A DNA stretch of 64,000 nucleotides from an uncultured delta proteobacterium (GTDB taxonomy: Bacteria > Desulfobacterota > Binatia > UBA9968). The stretch's first letter is position 1. Every line of letters begins with the position of its first letter. The stretch is from the NCBI GenBank assembly GCA_963847445.1, contig CAWJZV010000015.1, forward strand, positions 128,001-192,000, read 5' to 3'. Positions 13,684 to 25,392 of the stretch are shown piece by piece. Made by a program: the position numbers and the translations under genes. Below the pieces are notes generated by a model. The model had not been told where the DNA came from and did not search any database. It was given only the letters and a program-made list of their open reading frames with translations.

Positions 13684-15643
13684 ATGGCAAATACGCAATC
13701 CCCGAATGACACCAAGCCGATTGGGCTTACCACGCAGCCGCTACCGGCATCGCACAAAGTCTACGTCCATAGTCATCAACGTCCTGAGATCAGCGTGGCG
13801 ATGCGCGCCGTGGTGTTGTCCAACGCCCAACATGGAAACGGCAACGGCAATGGCCACGGCGCGCATGCCAATGCGCCGTTGATGATCTACGACACCTCTG
13901 GACCTTACACCGATCCTGAGGCTCAGACCGATATCCGCCGGGGCTTAAAGCCGATGCGCCTCGATTGGATCCGCGGTCGCGGCGATGTCGAGGAACTGGC
14001 CGGTTCGAGCTATCAAGCACCGGTTAAGAAAAATGGCAAGGCGAGCGATCCGCAGACTGAGCGGTTTCCCGACAGCGCGCGGCGGCCGATCCTGCGCGCC
14101 AAAACGGGTTGCAATGTTTCGCAGATGCATTACGCCAGGAAGGGCATTATCACGCCTGAGATGGAGTATGTGGCGATTCGGGAAAATCTCGGACGGCAGC
14201 AAGCTTTTGAGAGCAACGGCAATGGCCGCACCCATGCCGGTTACAGTTTCGGCGCGGCGATCCCCAAGTTCGTCACGCCGGAGTTCGTGCGCGACGAAGT
14301 CGCCCGTGGGCGGGCGATCATTCCCTCCAACATCAATCATCCGGAAAGCGAGCCGATGATCATCGGCCGCAATTTTTTGGTCAAGATCAACGCTAACATC
14401 GGCAACTCGGCGGTGGCGTCGTCCATCGAAGAGGAAGTCGAAAAGATGATCTGGGCTACGCGATGGGGCGGCGACACGGTGATGGATCTGTCCACCGGCA
14501 TGGATATTCATGAAACCCGCGAGTGGATTTTGCGCAATTCACCGGTGCCCATCGGCACGGTGCCGATCTACCAGGCGTTGGAAAAGGTCGACGGCAAGGC
14601 CGAGGATCTCACTTGGGAGATTTTTCGCGACACCTTGATCGAGCAGGCCGAGCAGGGCGTGTCTTATTTTACCATTCACGCCGGCGTCCTGCTTGCGCTA
14701 TGTGCCGCTGACCGCCAAGCGCGTTACCGGTATCGTCTCGCGCGGCGGCTCGATCATGGCCAAATGGTGTCTCGCCCATCATCAAGAGAATTTTCTCTAC
14801 ACCCACTTCGAAGAGATCAACGAAATTATGAAGGCCTACGATGTCGCCTATTCATTGGGCGACGGTTTGCGCCCCGGCTGTATCGCCGATGCCAACGACG
14901 AAGCGCAATTCGGCGAGTTGGAAACCCTTGGCGAGTTGACCGAGATCGCCTGGAAGCATGATGTCCAGGTGATGATCGAAGGGCCCGGCCATGTGCCGAT
15001 GAACATGATTCATGAAAACATGACCAAGCAGTTGGAAACCTGCCACGAAGCGCCGTTCTACACTCTTGGGCCGCTGACGACCGATATCGCGCCGGGCTAC
15101 GATCATATCACCAGTGCCATCGGCGCGGCGATGATCGGCTGGTACGGCACGGCGATGCTTTGTTACGTGACGCCGAAAGAGCATCTCGGATTGCCGGATA
15201 AGAAAGACGTCAAGGACGGCGTCATCGCCTACAAGATCGCCGCCCACGCCGCCGATTTGGCCAAGGGCCATCCGGGCGCCCAGGAGCGCGACAACGCCCT
15301 CAGCCAGGCGCGCTTCGAGTTCCGCTGGGAAGATCAGTTCAATCTCAGTCTCGATCCCGAGACTGCGCGTGAGTTCCACGATGAAACCTTGCCGGCGCAG
15401 GGCGCCAAGGTGGCTCATTTCTGCTCCATGTGCGGGCCGCATTTCTGTTCCATGAAGATCACCCAGGACGTGCGCGATTACGCGGCGCAGTTGGGCGTTC
15501 AGGAAGAAGCCGCCCTGGCTGCCGGCATGAAAGAAAAGGCGGAAGAGTTCAAAAAATCCGGCGGCAAGATTTACCAGGAAGTCGGCGCCGCGGCAGCGAG
15601 CGAAAGCGCTCCCGTCCCCATGCGGGCAGCGGCGAAAGACTGA
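13684..15643 (+). CDS. thiC: Phosphomethylpyrimidine synthase; frameshift near 14695
   Basis: [40 protein letters not shown]. Confidence 0.97.
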
Positions 15644-15717
15644 TCGCTCCTAACGAGTTATGCTCCAGTGAACTGGCCGCCCCCTGGCGGCCAGTTCCAT
15701 TTCGCCCTTGTTCATCC

Positions 15718-16259
15718 ATGCCGCGTCTCAGCCGTAAATCACCGGTCCGGATGCTGCTCTACGGCTTTGGGCCGTACCGCAAGTTCACCGAGAACATTAC
15801 GGCAAAAATCATCGAGTCTCTGGCGCCCCGGCCGGGGCTGGGCACAATTGTTTTTCCGGTGCGCTTTCAGCGCCGGCAGTTCATTGACGCGCTAAGAACC
15901 CTCCAGGCCTTTGATGGTCGTGGGTTTGGGCCAAAGTTCGCGACCGAGAATCGAGGTCGAGACCCGCGCGATCAATCGCCGCGCGGGCCAGCAAGTCCGG
16001 TGCGCCGCGGTCGATCACCGCAGGCGGAAAAGCTTGGATGCCGGCAACCATGCCGCTCTCCGTGACCCGTCCCGCGGCGAAGTCGATCAACGCCGGCGAC
16101 TATGTCTGCAACTTCTCGATGTATGTGATGCTTGAGGAGCTTGAACGGCAAGACCACAATAGCCGCTTCGGCTTTGTCCACATTCCCTTCAATCACGACC
16201 TCCAGGCGGCGTGCCGCTACGTCGAACGGATCGTCGGCAAGTGTTTCAATATGCGCTGA
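15718..16259 (+). CDS. Pyroglutamyl-peptidase I-like (C15) protein; frameshifted
   Basis: [29 protein letters not shown] and FVHIP spread across three frames. Confidence 0.75.
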
Positions 16260-16290
16260 TAAGTTGGAGCGCGATCGCGCCGCCAAGTGG

Positions 16291-23410: not shown

Positions 23411-23749
23411 GGGCGAAGAAACCGGTGTCGGCTGGAACAGTGATAGGTATGTCAATCGCCCATAGCGTCAATCCGCCGCCGCCCTTGCGTGTGTCATGGT
23501 TAGGAGTCCTGCGGTTAAACGGACAGTTTTCATCGTCGAGATTCACGACCTCAAGGCTCTCTTCAGCGTAAGTTTATTGTGGATTTCTCGGGCGGTCGGT
23601 GTTTCCATGCCGCCATAAACAGAGGAAGAAATATCAGCGTCACTCCGAGAACGCAACCGATTCTCGACCGACTCGCATTGACTTATGCTTTGCTCTGTAA
23701 CAGGCTAAGCCCGTTCATAATAAACAAACTCGGCAAGGATTGCGGATTC

Positions 23750-24244
23750 ATGGCACCAGCGCACACCCCCCTCGTCAGCGTCATCATGGGCAGTCAATCG
23801 GATTGGGACACCATGCAGCATGCGTCGGCGACGCTCAAAGACTTCGCCGTTGAGCATGAATGTCTGATCGTCTCGGCCCATCGGACGCCGGCGTGGCTCA
23901 CGGAGTTTGCCGGCGGCGCTGAGGGGCGCGGCATCGAAGCGATCATCGCCGGCGCCGGCGGCGCTGCGCATCTGCCGGGCATGACGGCGGCGCAGACTCT
24001 GGTTCCTGTGCTCGGTGTGCCGGTGGAAAGTGCCGCGCTCAAAGGCATGGATTCGCTGTTATCGATTGTCCAAATGCCGGGCGGCATTCCAGTCGGAACG
24101 ATGGCGATCGGCAAAGCCGGCGCGATTAACGCAGCACTGCTGGCCATTGCGATCCTCGCCAATTCACGGCCTGAGCTGCGCGAGAAACTGCGCCAGTTCC
24201 GCGCCAATCAGACCGCCGCCGTGCGCCAGCAGAAGTTGCCGTGA
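23750..24244 (+). CDS. purE: N5-CAIR mutase (class I PurE)
   Basis: [34 protein letters not shown]. Confidence 0.97.
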
Positions 24245-25392
24245 GTAGCAGAGTGAAACCCATTCTTCCAGGGGCAGCCATCGGCGTGCTTGGCAGCGGC
24301 CAATTAGGGCGCATGTTCGCTATCGCGGCGCGCCAGATGGGCTACCGCGTCCACACCTTTTCATCTGAAACCGACACACCGACGGGGCAGGTAGCCGATG
24401 TCGAGATCGCGGCGTCCTATGACGATCTTGACGCCGTGCGCCGGTTTGCCCAGGCGGTTCAAGTGGTGACTTTCGAATTCGAAAATGTCCCGGCGGCCTG
24501 TGTCGAGGCGGCGGCCGCTTTCGTGCCGGTGCGTCCCGGCGGTTCGCTGTTGCACATCGCTCAGAATCGCCTGCGCGAAAAGAGCTTTCTCGCGCGGAAC
24601 GGTTTCCCGACGACAGAGTTTGCTGCCGTGCGTGGGCTTGACGATCTCCCCGCGGCGACAAAGAAAATCGGCTTCCCGGCGATCATGAAAACCGCCAGCT
24701 CGGGTTACGATGGCAAGGGCCAGGCGAAGGTTGCGAATCTCGAGGACGCGGCGCAGGCATTTCACGGTTGCGGCGGCCAGGAGATGATTGTCGAAGGGTT
24801 TGTCGATTTCGAACTGGAATTCTCGGTGGTGATGGCGCGCGGCCTGGATGGTCAGTTTGTCCACTGGGGAGCAATTCAAAATCGCCACAAACATCACATC
24901 CTCGACATATCGTTGGCGCCGGCGCGGATGGGCCAAACAGCCAGCGCTCGCGCCTTTGAAGTTTCCCGAGCGCTTGCGGATAAGCTCGACTTGATCGGTG
25001 TGCTGTGTATCGAGTTTTTCCTGACGCGAAATGGCGAGATTCTGGTCAACGAACTCGCGCCCCGGCCACATAACTCCGGCCATCTGACGATCAACGCTTC
25101 GCGCACCAGTCAGTTTGAGCAACAACTGCGGGCGGTCTGCGGCCTGCCGCTCGGCTCGACGGAATTTGTCGGCGCTGCGGCCATGGCCAATTTACTGGGA
25201 GACTTGTGGCACGGCGGCGAGCCCAATTGGCCGGCAGCCTGTGCGCTGCCGGACGTGAAGCTTCATCTCTACGGCAAGATCGAGCCGCGCCCTGGGCGCA
25301 AGATGGGCCATCTGACAGCGCTGGCCGCGACGGGTGAAAGCGCAGCGCAGATCGTGCTCTTGGCGCGGGAAAATTTGCACCCGGTTCGTTAG
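24241..25392 (+). CDS. purK: N5-CAIR synthetase
   Basis: [39 protein letters not shown]. Confidence 0.97.

Follow-up and report, generated by a model that had tools for sequence, protein, structure and literature searches.

A DAB-type inorganic-carbon pump beside purE-purK in a soil bacterium of the Binatia: a possible low-CO2 island for purine synthesis

Why should the genes for an inorganic-carbon pump lie between purC on one side and purE-purK on the other? This question is raised by a window of 64,000 nucleotides (contig CAWJZV010000015.1, positions 128,001 to 192,000) from the genome of an uncultured soil bacterium of the Binatia. In a preliminary description of the window, the pump was proposed to serve purine carboxylation and the split of AIR between purines and thiamine, rather than carbon fixation. 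A single window is insufficient for showing that such an adjacency goes beyond chance, whereas comparative data can show it.

Gene content of the locus

Searches with Pfam and NCBIfam models gave the gene order apt, thiC, purC, then PII-dabA-dabB on the minus strand, 339 bp, and purE-purK, and every gene named in the preliminary description was found in its place. The apt gene for adenine phosphoribosyltransferase (12387 to 12923, plus strand; NCBIfam NF002636, 235.4 bits at a cut-off of 125) forms the left end of an ancestral apt-thiC-purC block, which is kept in congeners. In thiC (13684 to 15643, plus strand), both ORFs are matched by Pfam PF01964 and the NCBIfam ThiC models. The purC gene for SAICAR synthetase is located on the minus strand (16291 to 17163); its first segment is matched by PF01259 and NF010568, and no second purC was identified in the genome. 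One gene missing from the earlier gene list, coding for a pyroglutamyl-peptidase-like protein (Peptidase_C15), is broken by indels and was located at 15718 to 16299 on the plus strand by tblastn with the intact congener protein, in two frames; the corresponding ORFs of the congeners are matched by Pfam PF01470.

The dab unit is transcribed toward purC, which lies downstream of it on the same strand. Its last gene codes for a PII-like protein of the CPII type (17311 to 17649, minus strand; PF00543, 71.6 bits), and the distance from the PII stop codon to the purC ATG, given earlier as about 150 bp, is 147 nt; no terminator-like site was found in this gap. The sole PDB matches of the PII-like protein are 5D4N and 5D4L (E about 1e-28), which we take to be CPII, the carboxysome-associated PII-like protein. 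The dabA gene for the DUF2309, beta-carbonic-anhydrase-like subunit (17699 to 20828, minus strand) is present as two ORFs, which score 375.2 and 523.3 bits with PF10070 (cut-off 25), jointly span profile positions 2 to 747 and represent the single PF10070 locus of the genome. C465 and D467 of the first ORF (P0002) align with C351 and D353 of the DabA2 chain 9RD0_A, and H58 and C73 of the second ORF (P0003) align with H524 and C539; all four zinc-site positions of DabA2, presumably its zinc ligands, are thus conserved in the DabA of the window. Among 39 DabA sequences, neither H58 nor C73 varies, and the Cys and the Asp of CID.RSE are kept by at least 90% of the rows.

The dabB gene (20816 to 23410, minus strand; PF00662 and PF00361) has a stop codon that overlaps the start of dabA and an ATG at 23410, the listed ORF beginning at a TTG at 23455. 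Up to about residue 557 the DabB protein is NuoL-like, with the DabB2 chain 9RD0_B matching residues 78 to 557 (E = 1.2e-35), and residues from about 595 to 879 resemble half of NuoM, the NuoM models matching 605 to 857. In many loci of Nitrospira, Nitrospinota and proteobacteria, this C-terminal part has its match in a separate ORF that stands between the dabB and dabA genes, and the long form of DabB is kept across the genus. In the locus of a Thermocrinis MAG (L093) no match to the C-terminal part was obtained. By its sequence the pump is predicted to be DAB1-like, composed of DabA, a DabB with a fused DabC-like part, and a CPII-type PII protein.

On the plus strand, purE for the class I N5-CAIR mutase (23750 to 24244; TIGR01162, 203.1 bits at a cut-off of 149.6) was assigned a start codon at 23750, the listed ORF beginning at 23579, and its stop codon is overlapped by the start of purK. 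The latter (24241 to 25392, plus strand) codes for N5-CAIR synthetase, an enzyme consuming ATP and bicarbonate (NF004677, 448.3 bits against 441; TIGR01161, 379.2 against 318.4). Since both proteins pass the curated cut-offs of their equivalog models and the genes adjoin, the pair represents class I AIR carboxylation. PurE carries SAHRTP and AGGAAHLPG, motifs which we take to mark class I PurE, and a genome-wide check for a second purE returned just a weak LarB-like paralogue. A tandem universal stress protein (25649 to 26596, minus strand; PF00582, 158.6 bits) forms a conserved right flank of purEK and also follows purK in the loci L026, L027, L160, L161, L168 and L174.

Between the ATG codons of dabB and purE lies a divergent control region of 339 nt (23411 to 23749), earlier put at about 340 bp. 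An alignment of the 8 DAB-type loci revealed two conserved blocks in it, at about 23650 to 23666 and 23677 to 23708. Both are present in all 8 of these loci, and neither occurs in 9 SulP- or Sbt-type loci, in 4 other purEK loci or in 8 further dab loci not joined to purE (5 of congeners, 3 of outside relatives). The region gave no Rfam match.

The genes thiC, purC and dabA are each interrupted by indels of one nucleotide, and the frames were checked against contigs of other public runs. The thiC gene has two frames that switch at about 14693/14694, where contigs from three other runs lack one base at 14691/14692. Four frame segments were identified in purC, with breaks near 16753, 16653 and 16376; contigs from other runs lack single bases at 16653 and 16762/16765, and for the third break near 16376 no matching indel is listed among them. 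For dabA, which is split into ORFs of 682 and 364 amino acids, the extra base at 18845 does not occur in contigs of two other runs, one of these contigs being a piece of 215 nt that is otherwise identical. The pyroglutamyl-peptidase-like gene has indels at 15902, 15983 and 16253 relative to contigs of other runs. Since the other-run contigs are without most of the extra bases and dabA is unbroken in 5 congeners, the breaks are most likely assembly indels and not signs of pseudogenes.

Host genome and characterised pumps

In the genome, which is 91.8% complete, no match was obtained for the RuBisCO large subunit (PF00016; as a control found in 5 of 14 genomes) or for the carboxysome BMC shell (PF00936; found in 2 of 14), so that neither part of a carboxysome-type CO2-concentrating mechanism was found. 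CODH/ACS (PF03598) and ATP-citrate lyase (PF16114) were likewise without a genome match, the latter also in the congeners G004 and G014; this negative is meaningful because the same search was positive in a Nitrospira and a Manganitrophaceae genome. The proposal that the pump does not serve RuBisCO-based carbon fixation was therefore borne out genome-wide. It is quite improbable that the pump feeds large-scale carbon assimilation by another route, with the pur neighbours being incidental. The reversed oxidative TCA cycle, a 3-hydroxypropionate-type cycle, the reductive glycine pathway or heavy PEP carboxylation by a serine-cycle methylotroph would be candidates, and the search of the host genome covered the four pathway markers named above. 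Such a role would agree with the nearest DabA relatives, which by their record titles belong mostly to autotrophs (Nitrospira, Manganitrophaceae and sulfur-oxidising Gammaproteobacteria), and with the RuBisCO of an actinomycetotal genome described below. However, besides the missing markers, it leaves unexplained that three transporter families are kept beside purEK.

The genome also gave no match for beta- and alpha-carbonic anhydrase (PF00484 and PF00194, the two classes that the search covered), SbtA (PF05982) or SulP (PF00916). For this reason, DAB is probably the general bicarbonate supplier of the cell. A stricter form of this view holds that DAB simply replaces carbonic anhydrase for all bicarbonate-dependent enzymes, namely acetyl-CoA carboxylase, carbamoyl-phosphate synthetase, anaplerotic carboxylases and PurK, and that the purEK neighbourhood is a recombination-prone slot without functional meaning. 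The presence of the pump is explained equally well in this way, and a replacement of carbonic anhydrase by DAB/MpsAB homologues in heterotrophs is described in two sources (10.1101/476713, PMC13622662).

DAB1 is the DabA-DabB-DabC complex of Halothiobacillus neapolitanus and Thermocrinis albus (10.64898/2026.05.01.722082). The pump of the window shares with it the beta-carbonic-anhydrase-like zinc site in DabA, the NuoL-like DabB and the location of the membrane subunit genes before dabA. It differs in that DabB and the DabC-like part form one ORF of about 865 to 879 amino acids, a fusion shared by the nearest relatives, one Manganitrophaceae MAG and a few other MAGs, and in that it flanks purEK and purC instead of occurring with RuBisCO or a carboxysome. 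With DAB2 of H. neapolitanus (9RD0; 10.64898/2026.03.13.711513), which has no DabC, the likeness extends over the C-terminal half of DabA (E = 1.6e-83), including the four zinc-site residues, and over the matched stretch of the membrane subunit, whereas the DabA of the window is about 170 amino acids longer, with insertions in the N-terminal half.

The PII gene shares its position after dabA with the CPII gene, but it is not located beside a carboxysome operon, and the relation is known from the sequence match. CPII binds adenine nucleotides in a bicarbonate-dependent manner. Of 79 DabA loci, 62 have a PII gene after dabA. MpsAB of Staphylococcus aureus, a DAB homologue in a heterotroph, reportedly supplies bicarbonate. 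In the available text on the MpsAB-like system of Bacillus subtilis (PMC13622662), bicarbonate is provided for anabolic carboxylations including PurK. The DAB of the window would resemble these systems as a heterotroph homologue supplying anabolic carboxylations in place of or beside carbonic anhydrase; it differs in the PII partner, the DabC-like part and the pur linkage, none of which is described for MpsAB in that text, and MpsAB systems have been described as Na+-coupled bicarbonate importers.

Transporters beside purEK in the genus and beyond

PurK scored above its cut-off in 8 of 31 genomes of the genus; across the phylum, 16 of the 401 genomes sampled had such a PurK. This patchiness fits the logic of a minireview (PMC10880623) in which AIR carboxylation is assigned to PurK at low CO2 and to PurE alone at high CO2, with reference to Synechococcus purK mutants that need high CO2. 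From gene content the review draws conclusions on habitat, whereas in its available text transporters physically coupled to purEK are not reported.

An inorganic-carbon-type transporter was identified directly upstream of purE in all 8 PurK-bearing congeners, showing that the link between dab and purEK in the window is not a one-off. Three families are involved: DAB, divergent from purE, in five genomes (G000, G004, G014, G010 and G002), sbtA-sbtB, co-directional with purE-purK, in two (G008 and G022), and a SulP permease, divergent from purE, in one (G021). In the Sbt form a PII-like gene comes after SbtA (PF05982, 413 bits), which is the canonical arrangement of cyanobacterial SbtA-SbtB (L029, 413.1 bits and PII 58.9 bits; L027, partial SbtA 254.8 bits and PII 60.3 bits); unlike there, purE-purK come directly after on the same strand, in a non-photosynthetic lineage. 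The permease of G021 scored 152.7 bits with the BicA model NF050096, under the cut-off of 880 and at the level of the generic sulP model. Its nearest solved chain is 6KI1 (E = 1.3e-29), presumably BicA; it is a member of the SulP family, with bicarbonate as a putative substrate.

Metagenome contigs were counted when at least 1 kb upstream of purE was present. With a PurK at least 67% identical, 10 of 14 contigs carry DAB, Sbt and/or SulP upstream of purE and 4 carry purEK without a transporter, and with more distant PurK proteins none of 32 has a transporter there. Some contigs are near-copies of genus genomes (L167 equals G008, L163 is close to G004 and L165 to G010). A transporter is present in every row of one 15-row clade of the PurK tree (support 100/99), with the types interleaved, and the number of changes required for DAB is at least 4, falling to 2 when only starred branches are counted. 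One gain followed by differential loss may explain the pattern of the genus, and its instances are therefore not independent. DabA is present in 7 of 8 PurK-bearing against 8 of 23 PurK-less genomes, an association which is overstated by the Fisher p of 0.015 because the genomes are kin.

These data also bear on the view that the pump is a general supplier and its neighbourhood meaningless. It is in line with a beta-carbonic anhydrase in just 1 of the 8 PurK-bearing congeners, with the clear variability of the slot upstream of purE, and with dab in 8 PurK-less congeners; in the dab loci of the 4 of these that were checked (L016, L017, L021 and L023) purEK is not alongside, so that the link does not hold throughout the genus. 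However, a neutral hot spot is unlikely to be filled exclusively by inorganic-carbon-type transporters, as is the case in 8 of 8 genomes and 10 of 14 contigs. Against it also speak the location of 2 of the 3 SbtA genes of the genus directly upstream of purE and the tight packing of the co-directional Sbt form, whose genes are separated by about 8 and 60 nt and in one place overlap (L174).

Outside the clade, the survey of DUF2309 neighbourhoods revealed almost no pur genes beside DabA, and the dab-pur link is thus not general. Of 79 loci, purEK adjoins DabA in one (L105) and purC in one, and a purK-like fragment of 50 residues lies beside DabA in L071. The link was absent from 9 other DabA loci from the order of L105, from 36 purK loci of Actinomycetota and from 20 PurK-centred loci in other families of the host's own phylum, 15 of them with purE beside PurK. 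This rarity again agrees with general supply. Yet in L105, an unrelated actinomycetotal MAG that has RuBisCO, the genes dabB-dabA-PII-purK-purE lie operon-like on one strand, the start codons of purK and purE overlapping the preceding stops, an arrangement reached independently. Weighing both sides, we consider it unlikely, if a serious contender, that DAB serves general supply only and that the purEK neighbourhood has no functional meaning.

The thiC gene had been counted as part of an AIR branch point, around which the cluster would be organised, so that the pump would also balance thiamine (ThiC) against purine (PurK) synthesis. It is true that thiC, purC, purE and purK lie within 12 kb and that the enzymes they encode all work on AIR or on compounds derived from it. 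However, the block apt-thiC-(pcp)-purC is syntenic in 12 of 14 congener purC loci examined, and 10 of these 12 come from PurK-less genomes, most of them also without dab. The block is thus ancestral synteny occurring without dab or purK, and the presence of thiC is uninformative about the pump. In the window, thiC lies on the opposite strand with the peptidase gene between it and purC, and no metagenome or actinomycetotal case was identified in which thiC joins the unit of transporter and purEK. ThiC uses neither CO2 nor bicarbonate. This part of the preliminary description is disfavoured, and a thiamine-balancing pump appears highly improbable.

Bicarbonate supply and purine synthesis

The reading which we consider rather probable is that of a DAB1-type vectorial carbonic anhydrase which, in this clade, forms a low-CO2 island with purEK and has PurK as a main customer. 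DabA would be a cytosolic zinc enzyme and DabB a proton channel fused to the DabC-like part, and the gradient across the membrane would drive the hydration of CO2 entering by diffusion, so that bicarbonate would accumulate in the cytoplasm. PurK would then spend ATP to put this bicarbonate on AIR, and PurE and PurC would carry the carbon onward; the pump would be co-expressed with purEK and purC and be of benefit at low CO2. The transporter of the island would be interchangeable among DAB, SbtA-SbtB and a SulP permease, and it is because some transporter always stays beside purEK that PurK is regarded as a main customer. The same bicarbonate pool is very likely used by the other carboxylases that depend on bicarbonate. 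Of the purine-serving module first proposed, the recurring link to purEK thus stood and a dedicated purine role did not, a general supply being probable. It is plausible that the DAB module and purEK were co-selected to form a low-CO2 island, and the recurrence of the link suggests that the pump beside purEK aids purine synthesis at low CO2.

PII-type partners such as CPII and SbtB bind adenine nucleotides. A bolder idea, which we hold to be doubtful, is that AIR carboxylation would be the first step in the heterotrophic growth of this clade to become limiting under CO2 scarcity, and that a small "purine CO2-concentrating mechanism" of swappable pumps (DAB, SbtAB, SulP) would have evolved around it. 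The pump genes would be transcribed together with purEK or next to it, and most of the bicarbonate would be directed to PurK. By their nucleotide binding, the PII partners would close a feedback loop from the adenylate pool to carbon uptake. If this were true, the adenylate pool made by the purine pathway would set the rate of the carbon uptake on which this pathway feeds.

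Gene order at the dab-purEK locus

Scanning the window with Pfam and NCBIfam identified apt (12387-12923) and thiC (13684-15643) on the forward strand, followed on the reverse strand by purC (17163-16291), the gene for a PII protein (17649-17311), dabA (20828-17699) and dabB (23410-20816), and again on the forward strand by purE (23750-24244) and purK (24241-25392). On the far side, beyond purEK, a tandem universal stress protein is encoded on the reverse strand (26596-25649). All genes named in the preliminary description are present, and the gaps have the sizes estimated there, with 147 nt between the PII gene and purC and 339 nt between dabB and purE. 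purC shares the strand direction of the dab genes, and no terminator-like site was detected in the gap between the PII gene and purC. A broken gene between thiC and purC was identified as pyroglutamyl-peptidase-like, the family being assigned by Pfam on the ORFs of congeners.

The reading frame changes once in thiC, three times in purC and once in dabA. In contigs from other public sequencing runs, a single base is absent at 14691/14692, 16653, 16762/16765 and 18845, and one contig piece of 215 nt which spans 18845 has no difference besides the missing base. For the third break in purC, near 16376, no indel was listed among these contigs. The dabA frame is unbroken in five congeners, and purC is present as a single copy in the genome. 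Assembly errors are the probable cause of the broken frames, and on this comparison the genes were taken as intact in the organism. Further overlapping same-strand ORF pairs are present at 31037-32426, 40100-41582, 45808-49760, 53466-55783 and 59039-60498, a pattern that single-base indels scattered over the assembly would produce, and gene calls throughout the genome need to be read through frameshifts. No sequencing run contained half of the window's words; the depth over the dab genes is a few-fold at most, with pieces that are partly DNA of relatives, and uncovered parts carry no conclusion. The runs holding small shares of the window are mostly labelled as soil or sediment metagenomes. 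Contigs of the metatranscriptome library X20 match pieces of the PII gene, dabA and dabB with ~92-95% identity; they were rejected as proof of expression, since the library may contain DNA and the pieces belong to relatives.

The complete layout, consisting of purK-purE, dabB-dabA-PII and purC-thiC-apt, recurs on single contigs in the congeners G004 and G014 and across contigs in G010 and G002. The apt-thiC-purC block is kept in 12 of 14 further congener loci, and 10 of these 12 come from PurK-less genomes, most of which are also devoid of dab. The thiC side is therefore an ancestral synteny independent of the pump, and the idea that the module also serves the AIR branch point between purine and thiamine synthesis is unsupported. 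An Rfam scan of positions 9000-30000 (E <= 0.1) identified only a tRNA (9021-9094), with no match in the dabB-purE region. The region upstream of thiC (12924-13683) contains no TPP riboswitch at this threshold, which is unusual for a bacterial thiC. In the PurK-less and dab-less congener G044, a beta-carbonic anhydrase (PF00484, 177.5 bits; L138 8948-9577) is encoded between the peptidase gene and purC, representing a fourth sort of inorganic-carbon gene at this locus.

Pump subunits and host genome

The two halves of the dabA ORF together span the complete PF10070 profile. C351, D353, H524 and C539 of the solved DabA2 chain, the zinc-site residues in the DAB literature, were all matched in the alignment with DabA of the window. 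The membrane protein has a length of 865-879 amino acids which is kept across the genus. Its residues 78-557 match the solved DabB2, and residues ~595-879 match NuoM models and also a separate ORF which, in many loci of Nitrospira, Nitrospinota and Proteobacteria, lies between dabB and dabA. From these matches, the membrane protein of the window is predicted to be a DabB with a DabC-like part fused to it. For the PII protein, the only PDB matches were 5D4N and 5D4L, both of which are presumably CPII. Its gene is found after dabA in 62 of the 79 related loci; another 3 are truncated at a contig end, and PII is missing from 14. Among DabA-bearing records, the closest are MAGs with the titles Candidatus Binatia, 'delta proteobacterium' and Myxococcales, ahead of Manganitrophaceae and Nitrospira. 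Two tandem dabB copies precede dabC-dabA-PII in several Nitrospira loci (L042, L045, L051, L053, L056, L058, L059 and L060), and a Nitrosomonas eutropha contig (L102) carries two dabA-PII units in tandem.

The host genome comprises 7.19 Mb in 48 contigs (91.8% complete, 6.9% contaminated), in which DabA occurs once. The absence of RuBisCO and carboxysome genes, so far stated for the window only, was extended to the genome, where neither the RuBisCO large subunit nor BMC shell proteins were matched at this completeness. CODH/ACS CdhC also gave no match in the host genome. ATP-citrate lyase was not matched there or in the congeners G004 and G014; the first run of this search was uninformative, as no control matched, and it became usable after positive controls with Nitrospira and Manganitrophaceae genomes. 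Neither beta- nor alpha-carbonic anhydrase, SbtA or SulP was matched in the host genome.

Transporters upstream of purE

PurE was found in 30 and PurK above the cut-off in 8 of the 31 genomes of the genus, tallies which count the unpublished genome G005 (PurE, SulP and purC present; no PurK, DabA, SbtA or beta-carbonic anhydrase), without which every such denominator drops by one. Of the 401 genomes in the phylum sample, 16 have a PurK above the cut-off. Should PurE be as common across the phylum as in the genus, AIR carboxylation would proceed without PurK in most members. The PurE adjacent to PurK is only ~50% identical to PurE of PurK-less congeners, and both contain SAHRTP and AG.AAHL.G, motifs which mark class I PurE. 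Since the PurK-bearing genomes of the genus are without the other PurE type, the resident purE was replaced by the purEK cassette. DabA was identified in 15 of the 31 genomes, comprising 7 of the 8 PurK-bearing and 8 of the 23 PurK-less ones (Fisher p = 0.015, which is overstated since the genomes are kin).

One congener, G023 (97% complete; L148 11387-15235 and L017 1-12800), contains dab-PII-purC and is devoid of purEK. The place of purEK, next to usp, is taken by another purC-like gene with 57% identity, two genes for Band7 proteins and one UPF0182 gene; an MpsC-domain protein is encoded near them, and a LarB-like paralogue is the only PurE-type match found in this genome.

An inorganic-carbon-type transporter is present directly upstream of purE in all eight PurK-bearing genomes of the genus. 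In the window's own genome and in G004, G014, G010 and G002 this position is held by DAB, divergent from purE. G008 and G022 show the co-directional order sbtA-sbtB-purE-purK (SbtA 413 bits in G008; PII-like protein 59-60 bits), and in G021, which has no DabA, a SulP permease of 812 amino acids is encoded divergently, exactly between purC and purE. G008 and G022 also contain dab on short separate contigs, and the Sbt and dab systems may share the same position there, hidden by contig breaks. The SulP of G021 reached 152.7 bits against the BicA equivalog model, which has a cut-off of 880; it is thus not a BicA equivalog, and its substrate is presumed from context. Two of the three SbtA genes of the genus adjoin purE. 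In G008, the gene just upstream of sbtA-sbtB-purE-purK (L029 5914-8028) encodes a protein of 704 amino acids with a Cache sensor domain at its N-terminus and an MrpD/NuoL-type antiporter module; it is unusual for a proton-channel subunit to be fused to a ligand-sensing domain.

In metagenomes, 26 contigs encode a PurK with at least 67% identity, and 14 of them include at least 1 kb upstream of purE. A transporter was identified there in 10 of the 14: DAB in L163, L165 and L176, SulP in L160, L162 and L170, SbtAB in L167 and L174, and SulP together with SbtAB in L171 and L218, among which L167 is the G008 contig, L163 is a near-copy of G004, and L165 is one of G010. The other four were without a transporter upstream of purE, L183, L225 and L231 by Pfam and L234 by ORF layout only. 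More distant PurK proteins were found on 54 contigs, and no transporter was present in the 32 which include at least 1 kb upstream. A contig of run X1 links the upstream edge of purC to the promoter region of purE through ~2.7 kb of unrelated sequence, which fits the SulP form.

A PurK tree of 27 rows contains a clade of 15 rows (support 100/99) in which a transporter is present in all and the types are interleaved, requiring at least four changes for DAB (two of them forced by starred branches), three for SulP and three for Sbt. The PurK closest to that of the window (93% identity) adjoins SulP, not DAB. The cassette was therefore changed on a short time scale, by replacement or differential loss. 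Judged from these loci, one transporter cassette always remains beside purEK within the clade.

In the alignment of eight DAB-type loci, two blocks upstream of purE are conserved (23650-23666 and 23677-23708). Neither block occurs in any other form of the locus, the Sbt and SulP forms and dab loci unjoined to purE included, so the joined arrangement has its own intergenic region. In the alignment, a TTGACT hexamer opens the second block, ~70 nt ahead of the purE start; it is not followed by an evident hexamer at the standard spacing, and the site is absent from the list of a promoter scan which, with 4 sites found against 3.6 expected, gave no information. The block at 23650 was rejected as a purine-regulon operator, as it is unrepeated in the rest of the locus or before other pur genes; its 10-mer core has 23 scattered matches in 7.19 Mb, and the longer form has 5, only one of them within the locus. 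A resemblance of this block to the E. coli PUR box was dropped. At dab loci unjoined to purEK, the sequence ahead of dabB contains a TTGACA resembling a promoter element, along with a conserved leader and a strong hairpin to which a T run is attached (L016 ~5640-5790, L039 ~5200-5290 and L023 ~11950-12060). This candidate leader looks like an attenuator or a new riboswitch controlling the pump; it had no Rfam match in the PurK-less loci, and the element is absent from the window.

Loci outside the clade and the role of the pump

A survey of the neighbourhoods of DUF2309 homologues, suggested in the preliminary description, revealed that the purEK link is rare outside the clade: among the best 79 DabA loci of a species-level genome collection, purEK lies beside the pump only in L105 and purC only in L112, while L071 contains a 50-residue purK-like fragment. 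L105 belongs to an Actinomycetota MAG and has PII, purK and purE after dabB and dabA, all on one strand, with the purK start overlapping the PII stop and the purE start overlapping the purK stop. Its DabA shows 49% identity over the C-terminal half, and its genome contains RuBisCO. The dab-PII-purK-purE arrangement of L105 arose independently and has a different geometry. A link of purEK to a transporter was found in none of 9 other DabA loci within the order of L105, none of 36 purK loci across Actinomycetota (the unpublished genome G715 was tallied, its locus not being among the 36) and none of 20 loci centred on PurK in further families of the window's own phylum. In these searches the SulP and beta-carbonic anhydrase queries were single proteins, and distant members may be missed. 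A widespread rule linking transporters to purEK is therefore unsupported. A SulP-carbonic-anhydrase fusion said to lie near purE/purK in Mycobacterium tuberculosis was left out of account, as a literature search did not confirm it. Should the link only result from the variability of the region, the locus would be an ordinary DAB operon in a heterotroph. The link of the pump to purEK is supported by the sequence comparison within one clade and by one independent case.

As predicted from the protein families, CO2 would diffuse into the cell and be hydrated at the buried site of DabA, with the hydration driven one way by proton flow through DabB. The resulting bicarbonate pool would feed PurK, and with PurE and PurC the carbon would enter the purine ring. 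The DAB1 and DAB2 structure papers describe such a proton-driven one-way hydration (10.64898/2026.05.01.722082; 10.64898/2026.03.13.711513). PurK has already been treated as the route for low CO2, and PurE without PurK as that for high CO2 (PMC10880623), and a preprint has already suggested that heterotrophic carboxylases are served by DABs (10.1101/476713). Interchangeable carbon transporters physically coupled to purEK were not found in print; the literature search, outside which lay subscription journals and bioRxiv supplements, gave no report of DAB, SbtA or carbonic anhydrase linked to purEK.

The proposal that the pump serves purine carboxylation is thus retained with respect to its link to purEK, in the clade and in L105, and not as an exclusive purine role. 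Since no other carbonic anhydrase was found in the alpha and beta searches, the pump probably supplies all bicarbonate users.

DAB-type pumps are found in many bacteria without carbon fixation, where they are usually taken to supply bicarbonate to carboxylases in general. The genome layout described here points to a single customer. Within one lineage of soil bacteria, members of three unrelated transporter families have replaced one another at one position, and each time one of them is kept beside purEK, which is itself rare in the phylum; these cassettes form a natural set for comparing pumps in one genetic context. A testable idea is that the CO2 requirement of such heterotrophs is set by purine synthesis. 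This suggests the combination of PurK and a carbon transporter as a genomic marker of low-CO2 adaptation in soil bacteria.
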